Assembly: GCA_944389535.1 (NCBI GenBank)
Contig: CALXMS010000001.1
Location: forward strand, 214,178 to 278,177
Source: an uncultured Alphaproteobacteria bacterium
GTDB lineage: Bacteria; Pseudomonadota; Alphaproteobacteria; Rs-D84
Length of the DNA: 64,000 bases
Direction: 5' to 3'
The position numbers and the translations under genes were made by a program. A model generated the notes under the pieces. The model made no database searches and was not told the origin of the DNA. It was given only the letters and a program-made list of their open reading frames with translations. This document shows, in pieces, positions 8,011 through 13,610 of the stretch. Position 1 is the stretch's first letter. Each line of letters opens with the position of its first letter.

Positions 8011-11000
8011 TTAGGCTTTTGTAATAGATATGGATAAATTATATCCTTCTATTTCTGTATTATACTCACCAGACGTATTTTGCGACATATTTTTTATTAA
8101 GGCTTCGCTCATAATACGTTCTTTGTGTTGCTCAATCGCATTTGCAAGCGCAGGATCTGCGCTGTATTCCATATTTATGCGATCAGAAACGTCCAGCCCC
8201 ATCGTCTTACGCGTGTCTTGGATGAAACGTAGAGCATCGTTTGCCAAACCTTCCGCAACCAGTTCGGAATTTATTTCCGTATCCAACACAACAACAGCAG
8301 TGTTGTCTGGTAGTGCAGTACCAGTGACACCGTCTTTTACAGTTAAACGCTTTTCAAATTCATCGCTATTTAAAGAATAAGAACCAACGTTTAATTTGCC
8401 ATCAGAGATTTCATATTTTCCCTGTTTAACAGCAGGTATGATTTCTTTTAATGCGCCACCTAATCTTGCACCGATTTTTGGTGTGATTAGATATACAAAA
8501 GAATCGGCAACTGCGGAAATATCATCTGTGAATTCTACGTGTTTTACATTTAATTCGTCACGAATTATGTTTGCATAATTTTCCAGATTTGCACCGGCAA
8601 CAGTAAGCTTTGCCAAAGGTAAACGATTGCGCAATTTATATTGTTCACGCAACTGTTTGCCAACAGATACAACAGATTGAACGCGGCGCATATCTTCTAC
8701 AATTTTATGGTCGTATTCTGTTTTGTCCGGGAAAGATTGTAGGTGTACACTTTCTGAACCTGTTAGATTTCTGTAGATATAGTCGCTAATAAACGGAGCA
8801 AATGGCGCCAATGCACGACATACCGTGGTCAGAACATAATACAGTGTATCAAATGCATCTTGATCTTCATCCCAGAACCGTTCACGACTGCGACGAATGT
8901 ACCAGTTGTTTAATACATCTAAGAATCTGATAAATTCTTTGATTGCAACATCTGGTTTGTATTCGTCCAATGCATTTCCAACAACAGAAACCAATTCACT
9001 TAATTCCGCAATGATGTATTTGTCTAATGCGCTTTCAGAAACTGCATTATCACGTGCAGTAATATTTCCTGCATTTGCATACAAAGTAAAGAAATGGTAC
9101 GCGTTCCACAAAGGCGTTAGAATCGTCTTTGTTGGTTCGGCAAAAACTTTACCTTCTTTATCAACAGGAACAGGTTCTGCCTTTAAAAAGTTAGAACCTT
9201 GGATGAACAAGCGAATTGCATCCGCACCGAATTGTTCAATCTGTTCTTCTGGATTAACAAAGTTCTTTAATGATTTAGAGAATTTCTTTTTATTTTCATC
9301 AACTACCATACCATTTGCAGACACGGCCTTGAAGGCAGGTTTATCAAACAAAGCAGTTGCTAAAACCATCAGTGAATAGAACCAACCGCGAGTCTGGTCT
9401 TGCCCTTCGATAATATAATCTGCAGGGAAAGTCGCTTTAAATTTATCCTGATTTTCAAACGGATAGTGTAAAGAAGCCCAAGGCATAGAACCTGATTCGA
9501 CCCAGCAGTCCAAAACGTCTGTAATACGTTTCCAACCGTCTTTTGTTAATTTATCCAAAGTCGGTCTATGCAGGTCTTCAACCTTTACCCCAAAGAAATC
9601 TTCCAGTTCTTTGATAGAACCGAATACTTTATATTCACCGTCTTTTTCCCATATTGGTAACGGTGTTCCCCAAAAACGATTTCTGGAAATAGACCATGGG
9701 CGTGCACCCTCTATCCAAGTACGGAAACGTTCGCCAGCAGATGTCCAATTTACTTTTTTATTATTGGCAATCAACATGTCGCGAATTTTTGGCACGTCAA
9801 TATACCAAGAATCCGTTGCACGATAGATTAACTTTTCTTTACTACGGTCACTATATGGATAACTATGCTTATATTGTTCTTTTTTTACCAAATGACCGTT
9901 ATCACGCAGATATTGAATAATTTTTGGGTTTGCTTCAAAAATATTTTCACCGGCCCAATCTTTTACTTCTTCTGTGAAATTACCATAATTATCAACGTTT
10001 AAAATAACCGGAAATTTTGGGTCTATATCTTTTGCTGCCCAAAAGTCATCAGCACCATATGCGGGCGCAATATGAACGATACCAGTACCGTCTTCGTCAG
10101 AAACATATTCTGCCGGTATTACTTGGTACAATAAATCAGATGTATTTTCATAATAATTAAATAAAGGCTTGTAGTGTAAACCCACTAAATCCTTACCGAC
10201 TACGTCACCGATTTTTTCAGCATTTGCAAATTGTTTTTCATAAGCTTTTAATCTAGATTCAGCGATGACATAAACTGCCCCATCACTATCTTTCATGCGC
10301 AAGTATTTCATATTTGGATTAACTGCCAACGCACTGTTTGCAGGCAACGTCCAAGGCGTTGTTGTCCACGCCAGAACACGGTCACCATTTTCTAGTTCAA
10401 ACCAAACTGTAACGGCATCGTCAACAACATCACGGTAATCTTGAGAGGCTTCTGAATTAGAAACAACAGTACCATTTACCCAGTCAAAAGGGTTTACACT
10501 ATAATCTTTATATAATAAGCCTTTTTCGTATAAAGATTTCAGCGTCCACAACATAGATTCCATGTAATTTTTATCCATGGTTTTGTAGCCATAACCTTCA
10601 CCAACATCAACCCAACGCCCCATACGTTCAATGAATTTTTCCCATTCTTTCGTATATGTCAAAACGTCTGTACGGCACATATCACAGAATGCATCAATAC
10701 CCTGCTCGGCCACGATATCTTTTGCTTGTTTACCCTGCTTTTTTTCAACCGAATTTTCAGCGGGCAGTCCATGGCAATCCCAACCAAGTTCACGCACAAC
10801 ATGTTTACCACGCATAGTCTGATAACGTCCAACCATATCTTTAATGGCAGAAACCCCCAAGTGCCCCCAATGTGGCAAACCGTTACCAAAAGGCGGACCA
10901 TCATAGAAAGAAAAAGGATGACCTAGTTTGGTTTTATTCAAAGATTTGTGAAAAGTATCGTCTTTACGCCAGAATTCTAGAACCTGATGTTCCAATTCTG

Positions 11001-11037
11001 GGAAATTAGCCTTTGGGTCTGTTTTTGGGTATGCCAT
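8011..11037 (-). CDS. ileS: Isoleucyl-tRNA synthetase, type 2 (eukaryote/archaea-like)
   Basis: FYDGPPF, HWGH, GWDCHGLP, WTTTPWTLP, WSISRNRFWG, EGQDQTRGWF, KFSKS; long type-2 C-terminus (DELNVK...SDRI) without a Zn finger. Confidence 0.97.
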   Translation of the reverse strand: MAYPKTDPKANFPELEHQVLEFWRKDDTFHKSLNKTKLGHPFSFYDGPPFGNGLPHWGHLGVSAIKDMVGRYQTMRGKHVVRELGWDCHGLPAENSVEKKQGKQAKDIVAEQGIDAFCDMCRTDVLTYTKEWEKFIERMGRWVDVGEGYGYKTMDKNYMESMLWTLKSLYEKGLLYKDYSVNPFDWVNGTVVSNSEASQDYRDVVDDAVTVWFELENGDRVLAWTTTPWTLPANSALAVNPNMKYLRMKDSDGAVYVIAESRLKAYEKQFANAEKIGDVVGKDLVGLHYKPLFNYYENTSDLLYQVIPAEYVSDEDGTGIVHIAPAYGADDFWAAKDIDPKFPVILNVDNYGNFTEEVKDWAGENIFEANPKIIQYLRDNGHLVKKEQYKHSYPYSDRSKEKLIYRATDSWYIDVPKIRDMLIANNKKVNWTSAGERFRTWIEGARPWSISRNRFWGTPLPIWEKDGEYKVFGSIKELEDFFGVKVEDLHRPTLDKLTKDGWKRITDVLDCWVESGSMPWASLHYPFENQDKFKATFPADYIIEGQDQTRGWFYSLMVLATALFDKPAFKAVSANGMVVDENKKKFSKSLKNFVNPEEQIEQFGADAIRLFIQGSNFLKAEPVPVDKEGKVFAEPTKTILTPLWNAYHFFTLYANAGNITARDNAVSESALDKYIIAELSELVSVVGNALDEYKPDVAIKEFIRFLDVLNNWYIRRSRERFWDEDQDAFDTLYYVLTTVCRALAPFAPFISDYIYRNLTGSESVHLQSFPDKTEYDHKIVEDMRRVQSVVSVGKQLREQYKLRNRLPLAKLTVAGANLENYANIIRDELNVKHVEFTDDISAVADSFVYLITPKIGARLGGALKEIIPAVKQGKYEISDGKLNVGSYSLNSDEFEKRLTVKDGVTGTALPDNTAVVVLDTEINSELVAEGLANDALRFIQDTRKTMGLDVSDRINMEYSADPALANAIEQHKERIMSEALIKNMSQNTSGEYNTEIEGYNLSISITKA

Positions 11038-11059
11038 ATTGTGTACTCCTTAGCATTAT

Positions 11060-11082
11060 AAAAAACGGGCGCCTATGCGCCC
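11060..11082 (-). terminator. Attenuator terminator upstream of ileS
   Basis: Minus strand GGGCGC-ATAG-GCGCCC-GTTTTTT. Confidence 0.8.
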
Positions 11083-11110
11083 CAGCCACGTGCAGAAGCG
11101 CAGTGCTGAG

Positions 11111-11143
11111 TTATTTTATAATAATTATCATTGCCTTTTTCAT
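11111..11143 (-). CDS. Ile-rich leader peptide MKKAMIIIIK (ileS attenuator)
   Basis: ATG AAA AAG GCA ATG ATA ATT ATT ATA AAA TAA: four tandem Ile codons directly upstream of antiterminator/terminator and ileS. Confidence 0.8.
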   Translation of the reverse strand: MKKAMIIIIK

Positions 11144-11153
11144 ATTAAATCTG

Positions 11154-11229
11154 TGGTGCCGGTTATAGGACTTGAACCTACGACCCCCTCATTACGAATG
11201 AGATGCTCTACCAGCTGAGCTAAACCGGC
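11154..11229 (-). tRNA. tRNA-Thr(CGT)
   Basis: GCCGGTT acceptor, anticodon loop TT-CGT-AA, TTCAA T-loop, encoded ACCA. Confidence 0.96.
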
Positions 11230-11356
11230 ATATGCGTGTTATCTTAATATATGTTTCCATGAATTTCCAGTATATTTTATTTATCTTATTTTATTGCTAA
11301 ATATGAATAAATTCATTAAGATATTTATGCATATTTGACTATAAAAAGGGAAAAAA

Positions 11357-11926
11357 ATGAAAAAAATATTTTTAACAACAATTTTAGCAATATTACCAAT
11401 ATCTGCGTTTGCAGAAATAGAATATAAAATTATAAAACCAAAATTTTTTGTAGAATATGGTGCCACTATATTATCAAGTAATGGCATAAAAACCAAAGCT
11501 AATGATACAGTTGTTTCAGATGTTGATACGTTAACTTTTAATGCAGGAAATGCATTATTTGTTGGTGGAGATTTTAATGGTGTTCAATTGGGTTTTTCAC
11601 CATCGTATACAGACCAAGAAGGAACATCAGAATTTGATTTGTTATTAAAGTTAGATATACCTTTTATGGAAGGTAATTTTCAACCGTATTTTTCTTTATC
11701 TGCTGGGTTGGGTATAATGAGTATGGATGATTTAAATATAGATAACGAGCTTAGTTTTGCATATGGTATAGGTGGTGGAGTGAAATATAGTTTCAGTGAA
11801 AATATTTATATGAAATTTGGCTTAGAATATGCAGGAATAAGTTTTTCTACATCAGTTGAAAATGTAGATATTGATTTAACATCTTCTGGATTTGGGCTAA
11901 CAGCTAATTTTGGATATGTGTTTTAA
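11357..11926 (+). CDS. Outer-membrane beta-barrel protein (OmpA/OmpW-like 8-stranded)
   Basis: Signal peptide (SAFA), PYFSLSAGLG, FAYGIGGGVKY, terminal GYVF; very AT-rich. Confidence 0.85.
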   Translation: MKKIFLTTILAILPISAFAEIEYKIIKPKFFVEYGATILSSNGIKTKANDTVVSDVDTLTFNAGNALFVGGDFNGVQLGFSPSYTDQEGTSEFDLLLKLDIPFMEGNFQPYFSLSAGLGIMSMDDLNIDNELSFAYGIGGGVKYSFSENIYMKFGLEYAGISFSTSVENVDIDLTSSGFGLTANFGYVF

Positions 11927-11927
11927 T

Positions 11928-11955
11928 AAAAAAGGGCGTATCTAGCGCCTTTTTT
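11928..11955. terminator. Bidirectional terminator
   Basis: A-tract GGGCG...CGCCT T-tract between convergent genes. Confidence 0.7.
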
Positions 11956-11957
11956 AT

Positions 11958-13610
11958 TTAGTTGTTTCCACATTTAATTTTACGCAAAACTACCATTATT
12001 CCTGCAGGTGTCATACCTGGTATTCTGGATAAGTCCGCTATGTTTTCAGGACGTGTTGCAGTTAGTTTTTCTATTAACTCATTAGTTAACCCCGGCAGAT
12101 TTTTATATTCAAAATTTACAGGTATTTTCATCGCAGCGTCGCGTTTATATGATGCGATTTCGCGTTCGTTTCTTTGAATGTAGCCAGCGTAAAATTTATC
12201 GTTTTCTTTTATCTTTTCTGCGCGAATTGCATATTTTCTATCAAAATCTTCTTCTGTAATAAGCCCCAGTTTTACGGCAATTTTCCCCAGACGTACAATC
12301 GCATTATCACTGCGTAATGATAACCTGTATTCCGCACGTGATGTAAACATGCGGTATGGTTCATCTACGCCTAGTGTTGTTATATCATCAATTAATACGC
12401 CGATCATAGAATTTGTTCTGTCCAGATTTAATGTATCCTTTCCTAATGCAAATGCAGCGGCATTAGCACCAGCTACAATACCCTGCGCTGCGGCTTCTTC
12501 ATAACCAGATGTTCCATTAATTTGACCTGCAAAGAACAAACCTGAGATATCTTTTGATTCCAAAGTTTCTTTTAACGCACGTGCGTCAATTGCGTCATAT
12601 TCAATTGCGTAACCATAGCGCACAATTTTGGCCTTTGCTAAACCAGGTATTGTACGAATCCATACGTCTTGAATGTCTGCGCCAAAACTTGTTGATATAC
12701 CGTTCGGGTAAATCAAATTACTGTTTAAACCTTCTGGTTCTAAGAAAACATGATGGGACAAGTGTTCTGGAAATCGCATAATTTTGTCTTCTAGTGATGG
12801 ACAATAACGTGGGCCAGTTCCTCGTATATCACCGTTATACATCGGTGCATTTGAAATGTTTTCGCGAATTATATCGTGCGTGCGCCGGGTCGTATGAGTT
12901 ATATAGCATACTGCGTCATAATTATTATCTGGATTTGGTGCAGAAAACCAATCGTGTGGATTGTCGCCTGGTTGCAGTTCGCATACAGAAAAATCTATTG
13001 ATGTTTTATCTATACGTGCCGGTGTTCCCGTTTTTAAGCGCATTATGTTAAACCCAGCATCTGATAAGATACAAGAAATATTTCTATCTGGTGCTTGGTA
13101 TTCGCCGCTATCAGTTATACGTCCTGAAGGAACTTTTTCGTCACCTCTTGTTACCAAACCATGTAAAAAAGTTCCTGTTGTTAAAATGAGGGCTTTTGCA
13201 GAATATTTATTGTTTACAACTTTATTTGCTATATCTAAATTTTCAACAGTTTCAAAAAGAACAGTTAGATTTTTATAATTTTTCAGAATTTTTACTATTT
13301 CGTTGTGGTAAAGTGAACGATCTATTTGTGCGCGTAACGCTTGCGTTGCGGCACCGTGGGACGCATTCAAAGTACGGAAATGAATACCAGATGCATCTGC
13401 AGCTATGCTCATGACGCCGCCCAATGCGTCAATTTCTGCAACCATTTGTGATTTGCCGGGACCACCAATACTTGGGTTACAAGACATTGCCCCTAAGTCC
13501 ATTTCGCACTGGGTAAGCAACAAAGTACGTGCACCACGTCGAGAAGACGCTGTTGCAGCCTCTACCCCGGCGTGACCACCACCAATAACGATTACATCGA
13601 ATTCTGTCAT
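11958..13610 (-). CDS. mnmG: tRNA uridine-5-carboxymethylaminomethyl modification enzyme MnmG (GidA)
   Basis: [64 protein letters not shown]. Confidence 0.98.

Follow-up and report, generated by a model that had tools for sequence, protein, structure and literature searches.

A conserved isoleucine-codon leader and candidate attenuator upstream of ileS in Candidatus Enterousia

In Escherichia coli, the synthetase genes pheST are preceded by the pheM leader peptide, which includes several cognate codons in a run. The available text of Seliverstov et al. (2005; PMC1262725) cites pheST as the model of synthetase attenuators, predicts leader-peptide attenuators for leuS and trpS in Streptomyces, and gives ileS as T-box controlled in Firmicutes and Streptomyces, with a translational T-box variant in Actinobacteria. 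Here we examine a short element upstream of ileS, the isoleucine-tRNA ligase gene, in a 64-kb stretch of contig CALXMS010000001.1 (the window, meaning the whole stretch of DNA analyzed) from a genome placed in Candidatus Enterousia. The original prediction for this stretch, made from its sequence, proposed an isoleucine (Ile)-codon leader-peptide attenuator on the minus strand: an open reading frame (ORF) encoding MKKAMIIIIK, followed by an antiterminator and an intrinsic terminator. It also named the Alphaproteobacteria as the taxon, which is right. According to the accessible part of a 2025 study (PMC12306168), Candidatus Enterousia belongs to GTDB order Rs-D84 and has genomes below 1 Mb that lack amino-acid biosynthesis. 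The window genome comprises 0.88 Mb with 37.7% GC.

As at pheST, a leader peptide with cognate codons precedes a choice between antiterminator and terminator that would control a synthetase. The locus differs in amino acid and target (Ile and ileS), in its ten-codon ORF, which is much shorter, lacks a Shine-Dalgarno sequence and is probably leaderless in most relatives, and in having its regulatory codons wholly upstream of the RNA structure; a sequence relation to pheST was not detectable. The selection of mutually exclusive 2:3 or 3:4 hairpins before a terminator by ribosome position is shared with the enterobacterial leaders ilvL/ivbL, trpL, hisL, leuL, and thrL. However, those leaders serve biosynthetic operons and carry their regulatory codons inside region 1 of a 1:2 hairpin, whereas here Ile biosynthesis is absent, the target is a synthetase, and the hairpin that follows the ORF (P1) neither overlaps the codons nor covaries. 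T-boxes upstream of ileS share the gene, the signal (charged or uncharged tRNA-Ile) and the terminator/antiterminator output, but they bind tRNA directly, using a specifier codon in an RNA of ~200 nucleotides (nt) and no translation, in contrast to the ~85 nt with an ORF found here. The Streptomyces leuS and trpS attenuators are likewise predictions that include cognate codons and both hairpins, but the phylum, the amino acids and the sequences differ.

The original prediction had called such an element not known in Alphaproteobacteria. We also found no such attenuator described, but an "ileS leader CDS" (coding sequence) had already been named for Caulobacter crescentus: CCNA_03934, from ribosome profiling, is mentioned in passing as a negative control in the available text of Schrader et al. 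(2014; PMC4117421). Like our ORF, it is a small CDS, in its case translated, upstream of ileS in an alphaproteobacterium, a likeness by description only. In the literature searched, the locus tag CCNA_03934 was not met in any other paper, and no ileS leader-peptide attenuator was described besides the Caulobacter mention. A survey of synthetase operons by Lopatovskaya et al. (2010; Mol Biol 44:128) may already list ileS attenuators.

Conservation of the leader upstream of ileS

We located the ileS upstream regions of 24 same-genus genomes by the N-terminus of isoleucyl-tRNA synthetase (IleRS), and the same arrangement was found directly upstream of ileS in all 24. In 21 regions the leader started with an ATG 15 nt upstream of the Ile run, and in one with a GTG at the same distance; the remaining two had an ATG at 12 nt and 18 nt, respectively. 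The run comprised three to five codons (ATA ATT ATT ATT/ATA), followed by lysine (Lys) or Arg and then TAA or TAG. Differences in run length were whole codons, and the residues preceding the run were variable. After the stop came a spacer of 7-8 nt and a near-invariant switch and terminator, 67-81 nt 5' of the ileS ATG.

A degenerate pattern scan over 185,579 species genomes, in which start-codon position was not part of the pattern, returned at least 120 loci. The matches listed all came from Candidatus Enterousia or from Alphaproteobacteria, Rickettsiales or proteobacteria of animal guts, and the IleRS N-terminus stood directly 3' in 119 of the 120 listed, the remaining one ending at a contig end. 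Among 119 listed matches, the nearest in-frame ATG lay 15 nt from the Ile run in 109 and 12 nt in seven; the others started with an ATG at 9 nt, an ATG at 3 nt or a GTG at 15 nt (one each). These matches held at least 70 distinct leader peptides, all of the form M-x(3-4)-IIII-K/R. All 43 sequences that had not been selected by the Ile pattern carried at least three Ile codons in the run, and a non-Ile codon inside the core run was found in no sequence. The last three codons of the run varied at third positions only, a pattern partly forced by the extraction method. Because start, frame, stop, and Ile identity are kept, with synonymous-type variation and whole-codon indels, the ORF does not appear to be incidental. 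Start position, frame, stop and whole-codon indels also lend indirect support to its translation, which we infer.

A covariance model (R1), built from 131 distinct leaders, matched a single time in 144 of the 151 genus genomes, the figure for those of high quality being 106 of 109; L204, a miss that we inspected, is truncated by a contig end. The alignment of relatives' ileS upstream regions, suggested as a check with the original prediction, shows conserved Ile runs together with modest covariation of terminator and antiterminator. To the extent that sequence can show it, the proposed Ile-codon attenuator before ileS is supported by this comparison, in which ORF, terminator and antiterminator are conserved in single copy. 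Conservation, as the sole basis, confirms the leader as a real feature, and on these sequence comparisons the element is robustly real and undescribed for the lineage.

The distribution of R1 extends to some other genera of the family. In an order-level draw, it matched 116 of the 121 genomes of the window's own family (the window genome itself apart), among them 10 of the 14 that represent other genera. Five of these nine genera had matches (g11, 1/1; g12, 3/3; g13, 1/1; g14, 4/4; g18, 1/1), none occurred in g15, g16, g17 or g19 (one genome each), and R1 matched 0 of 29 genomes in five sister families. The leader peptides diverge to MATKTIIIIE, MYNKNIIIRG, MKNTKVIIIA, MQIKNIIII and MATQTVIIIE, each ending at a stop codon. 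In g13, the sequence of the antiterminator 5' arm (region 2) has changed, yet it is still complementary to the 3' arm (region 3). The g16 locus, missed by R1, encodes MSIREIIIIKI, after which an antiterminator and a terminator with an unrelated sequence keep the same overlap, whereas in g15 and g17 the ileS upstream region has no leader.

Two further genera deviate in other ways. In g19 (L205, G228), a short ORF encoding MTTIIIF precedes a long-range terminator stem. The 5' arm of this stem begins at the stop codon, and the stem encloses an inner hairpin. An antiterminator of the usual kind is lacking there, and a terminating ribosome would cover the terminator arm, an arrangement that is unexplained. 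In two of the three g12 genomes, an ORF of 181 amino acids (aa) separates attenuator and ileS (L240 3169-3714, minus strand, G198; also L195), with ileS (755.6 bits) directly after it in L240. A guess from sequence that this ORF encodes an acetyltransferase was dropped, as NCBIfam gave 0 hits at 1e-10.

Outside these families, a wider sample of 28 loci from other alphaproteobacterial families contained one clear analogue. This locus (L215, G301) encodes MKYLKINSVIIIKI up to a stop codon, followed by a GCCUGG/CCGGGC antiterminator that overlaps the terminator (CCGGGCA ... UGUCCGG, then T7), and ileS begins 27 nt further on. It is an analogue of the Enterousia element that either arose independently or has diverged very far. 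An Ile-containing ORF in the GC-rich locus L218 looked like chance and was rejected. A second type of small ORF was observed before ileS in two loci of family f6 (L181 and L185) and two of other alphaproteobacterial families (L211 and L214). These ORFs carry Ile-Ile ... Ile-Pro near their end (MFQINQEIIFRIPVWGN, MFNQKIIYRIPCGGQ, MSDIRSISIIISIIIP and ...DIIP, each before a stop), with an AUCCCC-loop-GGGGAU hairpin over the Ile-Pro codons and without a strong terminator.

The sequence further upstream is less uniform. Among the 24 protein-anchored regions it contained a tRNA-Thr in five and promoter-like sequence in most, and in L006 a tRNA-Thr with its own terminator is followed by a promoter and then the leader. 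We surveyed 130 distinct upstream regions of relatives. A match to TTGnnn-N16-19-TAnnnT ended within 15 nt of the start codon in 47, with a gap of 7 or 8 nt in 38 of these, and most other regions showed two further promoter-like types at the same spacing when viewed by eye. Because the gap between promoter and ATG is 7-8 nt and only one region has a Shine-Dalgarno-like sequence, the leader ORF is probably leaderless or nearly so in most species. In the window genome, the leader is probably co-transcribed with tRNA-Thr. The presumed start of the tRNA-Thr/leader/ileS transcript is the promoter-like stretch at 11270-11241, which the consensus promoter scan did not flag (8/12 matches); the ACTGGAAAT ... 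TA..AT arrangement seen there directly precedes the leader ATG in relatives without the tRNA. Since the same promoter type abuts the ATG elsewhere, the tRNA-Thr has apparently either entered the ileS leader transcript or been lost from it.

These upstream data bear on whether there is a switch at all. The hairpin could be the terminator of tRNA-Thr or a constitutive partial terminator, and the Ile ORF a chance string in AT-rich DNA or a separate peptide gene. In the window, the tRNA-Thr does end 10 nt before the ORF, and strings of four ATH codons and antiterminator-like pairings are common there by chance. Conservation already contradicts this account: the element is kept where no tRNA lies upstream, a tRNA-Thr 3' end being within 30 nt of the leader ATG in 25 of the 130 regions and none so close in 105; it occurs once per genome; and its ORF features are conserved. 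Because upstream content varies and the L006 tRNA has a terminator of its own, the leader hairpin is not simply a tRNA terminator, and we consider the absence of a switch extremely improbable.

Mutually exclusive RNA structures

The ORF, the eight-pair arm pairing and the terminator lie on the minus strand exactly where the original prediction had placed them. The spacer between leader stop and TGCGCTTC is 8 nt long and GC-rich, and TGCGCTTC (11102-11095) is complementary to GGGGCGCA (11083-11076) over eight pairs, two of them G-U. This pairing is part of a longer antiterminator, a hairpin of 11 base pairs (bp) with a loop of 4-5 nt (11102-11092 with 11086-11076), which explains the conservation of the supposed loop. 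Both the full length of this helix and the tRNA-Thr(CGU) upstream had been missed earlier. When the window transcript is cut before the terminator 3' arm, the antiterminator is the minimum free energy (MFE) structure at -14.4 kcal/mol, and the terminator 5' arm was sequestered in 112 of 131 MFE folds of transcripts cut in this way. The terminator itself has an all-GC stem of 6 bp, a 4-nt loop and T6, 22 nt upstream of ileS. Over the 131 sequences its hairpin was 92.7% paired with a mean energy of -11.7 kcal/mol, a C-G to U-A change occurred in seven, and the loop varied between sequences.

The 131-sequence set is biased, because the search pattern fixes the Ile codons and parts of regions 2 and 3; covariation was therefore recounted on 41 sequences found via the protein or the model. 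In this set, the terminator was 98.4% paired, two pairs had changed on both sides, and its covariation was reached by 4 of 500 shuffles. The antiterminator helix was 93.1% paired with three pairs changed on both sides, and its covariation score of 0.153 (0.131 ± 0.010 in shuffles) was reached by 11 of 500, whereas registers shifted by 1-3 columns were 27-52% paired. A linked triple change across regions 2, 3, and 4 was found in L023.

In the full-length transcript, the MFE fold consists of P1 and the terminator. The original prediction had offered CTCAGC/GCTGGG as a second alternative to termination. The two segments do pair, but they form the outer part of P1, and P1 is better regarded as a competing hairpin, one that can coexist with the terminator and whose pairs all cross those of the antiterminator. 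By findpath, going from P1 to the antiterminator means crossing a barrier of 12.2-12.5 kcal/mol, and the barrier from the antiterminator to P1 plus terminator is estimated at 10.5-11 kcal/mol. With barriers of ~10-12 kcal/mol, the switch should be under kinetic control, and whichever structure forms first should persist on the time scale of transcription. We considered P1 as a conserved helix of fixed register and rejected it, as it was 67-82% paired, showed no covariation and was equally paired when slid by three columns. On the 41 sequences it was 67.1% paired, with a covariation score below all 500 shuffles. The flank-swap energies give a weak signal: the native P1 spacer folds at -9.94, interspecies-swapped spacers at -9.32 and shuffled ones at -8.16 kcal/mol, so that native order adds ~1.8 kcal/mol over shuffled order.

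A switch of this kind could also be set by another factor, such as IleRS, another protein or uncharged tRNA, with the ORF incidental or serving to load ribosomes. The region from stop codon to T-tract is the most invariant part of the element, and synthetase genes controlled by their own product are known, the thrS operator being bound by the synthetase to control its own gene. A sub-threshold T-box-like leader before aspS (described below) means that RNA-based tRNA sensing may exist in the lineage. However, Rfam 15 (4227 models, T-box RF00230 included), searched over 10000-12500 at E up to 10, gave no match except the tRNA, and the element is absent from Rfam. The variable terminator loop argues against a fixed anticodon mimic. 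In the ORF, start, frame, stop and Ile identity persist through synonymous-type variation and whole-codon indels, and g16 and L215 retain an Ile ORF despite a different RNA sequence. We regard control by another factor as quite improbable.

Proposed mechanism and direction of the response

We propose that the element is probably a ribosome-mediated transcription attenuator of the leader-peptide type, through which ileS transcription would depend on how much charged tRNA-Ile is available. Transcription would begin upstream, before tRNA-Thr in the window genome and, in most relatives, from a promoter with 7-8 nt between its -10 box and the leader ATG, and a ribosome would read the ten-codon ORF. 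With Ile-tRNA plentiful, the ribosome at the stop codon would open the base of the antiterminator and release those nucleotides of the terminator 5' arm that lie nearest the loop; the terminator (11082-11060) would then form and transcription would end 22 nt upstream of ileS. With Ile-tRNA scarce, the ribosome would pause at the four Ile codons, all of which precede the RNA switch. Once region 3 exits the polymerase, the antiterminator would form, the terminator could not nucleate, and ileS would be transcribed, with read-through restoring charging in a cell unable to make isoleucine. The footprint of a ribosome on any of the Ile codons extends no further than 7 nt beyond the first stop-codon base, and a ribosome stalled there would therefore leave the entire switch free.

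Several observations weigh against this reading. Nothing in the single window goes beyond chance. Runs of four consecutive ATH codons number 13 (4.69 ± 2.6 in shuffles, 2 of 100 reaching 13), and the leader fold has a z-score of -1.95. Shuffling the 28 nt that separate the stop from the terminator gave a sequestered terminator 5' arm in 1250 of 2000 cases, 288 of which were no less stable than the native fold. The GC-rich composition of the spacer alone yields such antiterminator-like pairings, and the case therefore rests on comparison between species. In that comparison, covariation is modest, most columns being invariant, and that of the antiterminator is not above shuffles on the pattern-selected set of 131. 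P1 is predicted in most sequences, and its region is more stable than shuffled sequence (mean z -2.3, n = 102). P1 excludes the antiterminator, and an Ile-stalled ribosome would leave P1 unmasked; should P1 form in vivo, the outcome of starvation would be termination. Further points concern expression: a Shine-Dalgarno sequence is absent before the leader ATG, with one Shine-Dalgarno-like match among relatives that lack the tRNA, the leader ATG of the window genome stands 10 nt after the tRNA, and the sequencing runs that contain the stretch are 20 of DNA type, with no RNA run among them.

The geometry, too, tells against the proposal and is not classical. The Ile codons are 6-17 nt upstream of the stop and the RNA structure is confined to the sequence downstream of it, and in 100 of 131 sequences the antiterminator 5' arm does not begin until 12-13 nt past the first stop base. 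With a 13-nt footprint, a ribosome at the stop would shield just 2-3 nt of the 11-bp arm, so the masking of the antiterminator by a terminating ribosome, as in the original prediction, holds only weakly. Under a 13-nt mask, 78 of 131 sequences still have a sequestered terminator arm, and under a 16-nt mask 4 of 131 do. For the window, the 8-bp antiterminator that remains under a 13-nt mask is weak (~-10 kcal/mol) and the full-length fold is the terminator; with a 16-nt mask the antiterminator is gone, and with a 10-nt mask the full antiterminator is the MFE structure even at full transcript length. In g14, the stop comes one codon earlier, so that a terminating ribosome would miss the antiterminator altogether, and the T-tract is degraded; these variants fit neither sign of response neatly.

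A rival reading is translation-dependent antitermination, with a response of reversed sign. P1 and then the terminator would form by default, and only a ribosome beyond the Ile codons, on the Lys or stop codon, would melt the P1 5' arm and yet spare region 2, allowing the antiterminator to form and ileS to be read; Ile limitation or lack of translation would then lower ileS transcription. The full-length MFE fold and the high barrier between the crossing P1 and antiterminator pairs agree with this, as does the 10-nt mask that leaves a full antiterminator at full length. The P1 5' arm lies 5-13 nt past the first stop base, where the 13-nt reach of a ribosome at the stop covers it and that of a ribosome on the Ile codons does not, and the post-stop spacer is GC-rich in a 38% GC genome, its native order adding energy over shuffled. 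However, reversal amounts to positive feedback in which less charging gives less IleRS, and we know of no aminoacyl-tRNA synthetase control that uses such feedback. P1 also lacks covariation in a fixed register, folds nearly as well with flanks swapped between species, and has no comparable counterpart in the leaders of g16, L215, and lysS (described below), which fit the classical sign. We therefore consider reversal unlikely.

The sign of the response is not readable from the sequence, and the classical sign, which we argue from functional logic and from variants of cleaner geometry, is unproven. We favor it because it would provide negative feedback, because P1 is without comparative support, and because the antiterminator 5' arms of g16, L215, and lysS lie within the footprint of a terminating ribosome; in g16 and L215 the arm begins 5-8 nt after the first stop base. 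More tentatively, and with considerable doubt on our part, the genome-reduced gut bacteria of Rs-D84, which make no amino acids, may keep per-amino-acid sensing at their synthetases through tiny, probably leaderless attenuators (ileS, lysS) and T-box-like leaders (aspS), the bistable ileS switch, unusual in design, being timed by ribosome arrival and dwell and not by masking of region 1. Timing of this kind could give a timing-window response or even one of reversed sign.

If the attenuator proposed here is real, ileS, and probably lysS, would join the short list of synthetase genes attenuated through leader peptides, as opposed to T-boxes or protein operators. The control would sit in a lineage known from metagenomes only, with genomes below 1 Mb, no amino-acid synthesis and few other recognizable regulatory devices, and such cells would still measure charged tRNA-Ile. 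R1 would define an RNA family of one copy per genome usable for annotation, and the odd geometry would offer a compact natural test of ribosome control over downstream RNA folding. The principle is a textbook one, and the value is incremental.

The locus and other synthetase leaders

The features of the locus are collected in Table 1. The leader ORF reads ATG (11143-11141), AAA AAG GCA ATG, ATA ATT ATT ATA, AAA and TAA (11113-11111). The region 3' of ileS contains an ORF of 125 aa that matches nothing in Pfam, together with a gene for an HhH-GPD glycosylase, and the upstream neighbors are a divergent outer-membrane beta-barrel gene and mnmG.

Table 1. Features at the ileS leader locus, in window coordinates.
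Feature	Position	Strand	Basis or remark
Promoter-like stretch	11241..11270	minus	CTGGAA-type -35-like box 11270-11265, TAAGAT -10-like box 11246-11241
tRNA-Thr (anticodon CGU)	11154..11229	minus	ARAGORN; Rfam tRNA 69.2 bits; 10 nt before leader ATG
Leader ORF MKKAMIIIIK, including TAA stop	11111..11143	minus	Sequence reading
Four consecutive Ile codons ATA ATT ATT ATA, proposed regulatory codons	11117..11128	minus	
Antiterminator 5' arm (region 2), includes TGCGCTTC	11092..11102	minus	MFE fold of cut transcript
Antiterminator 3' arm (region 3), overlaps entire terminator 5' arm	11076..11086	minus	
P1 hairpin, 5' arm 11108-11100, 3' arm 11093-11083	11083..11108	minus	Full-length MFE fold; function uncertain
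Intrinsic terminator GGGCGC-ATAG-GCGCCC (11082-11067), G, T6 (11065-11060)	11060..11082	minus	Terminator scan
Shine-Dalgarno-like AAGGAG of ileS	11046..11051	minus	Sequence reading
ileS, isoleucine-tRNA ligase, 1008 aa, long MupA-like type	8011..11037	minus	TIGR00392 787.7 bits, cut-off 621.4

That the run samples two Ile decoding routes, AUU and the lysidine-dependent AUA, as first suggested from the window, is plausible in this genome: tilS is present (193 bits), three of the 44 tRNAs that ARAGORN found in the assembly have a CAU anticodon, and ATA is the commonest Ile codon (7910, compared with 7139 ATT and 1949 ATC). ARAGORN did not find tRNA-Ile(GAU) in the assembly; it is perhaps in an unassembled rRNA operon.

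A genome-wide attenuator search covered 122 terminators located up to 150 nt before long ORFs, the synthetase genes identified by BLAST being class Ia and IIb paralogues. Among these terminators, a convincing codon run was found only before ileS. The terminators before pheS, tyrS, and glyS were rejected as attenuators, as they belong to the ends of upstream genes.

A related layout precedes lysS (L151 411-1889; G000:C2; lysine-tRNA ligase, 549 bits). Its leader (270-390) consists of a tRNA-Gly(GCC), an ORF encoding MKFNFKKIFN up to a stop codon, and a GUGCGACC / GGACGCAC antiterminator that overlaps a terminator with T6. The antiterminator 5' arm lies ~6-9 nt after the first stop base, within the footprint of a terminating ribosome. 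The layout is kept in 17 same-genus relatives with an identifiable ORF, whose peptides follow M-x(3-4)-K-K/R-x(2-3)-stop (e.g. MKLFIKRFN). The leader has only two or three Lys codons, and its specificity for Lys is unclear.

Upstream of aspS (aspartate-tRNA ligase, 578.8 bits), we observed a T-box-like leader (L239 1501-1693, minus strand; G000:C1:179040-179232) that contains the motif AGGGUGGCACCGCG. It scores 31 bits against a gathering score of 93 bits (E = 1.5e-5) and is the only T-box-like match of the genome. To our knowledge, T-boxes are unusual in Alphaproteobacteria. Sub-threshold T-box matches occurred in 17 of 31 relatives from the order, the best reaching 90.4 bits.

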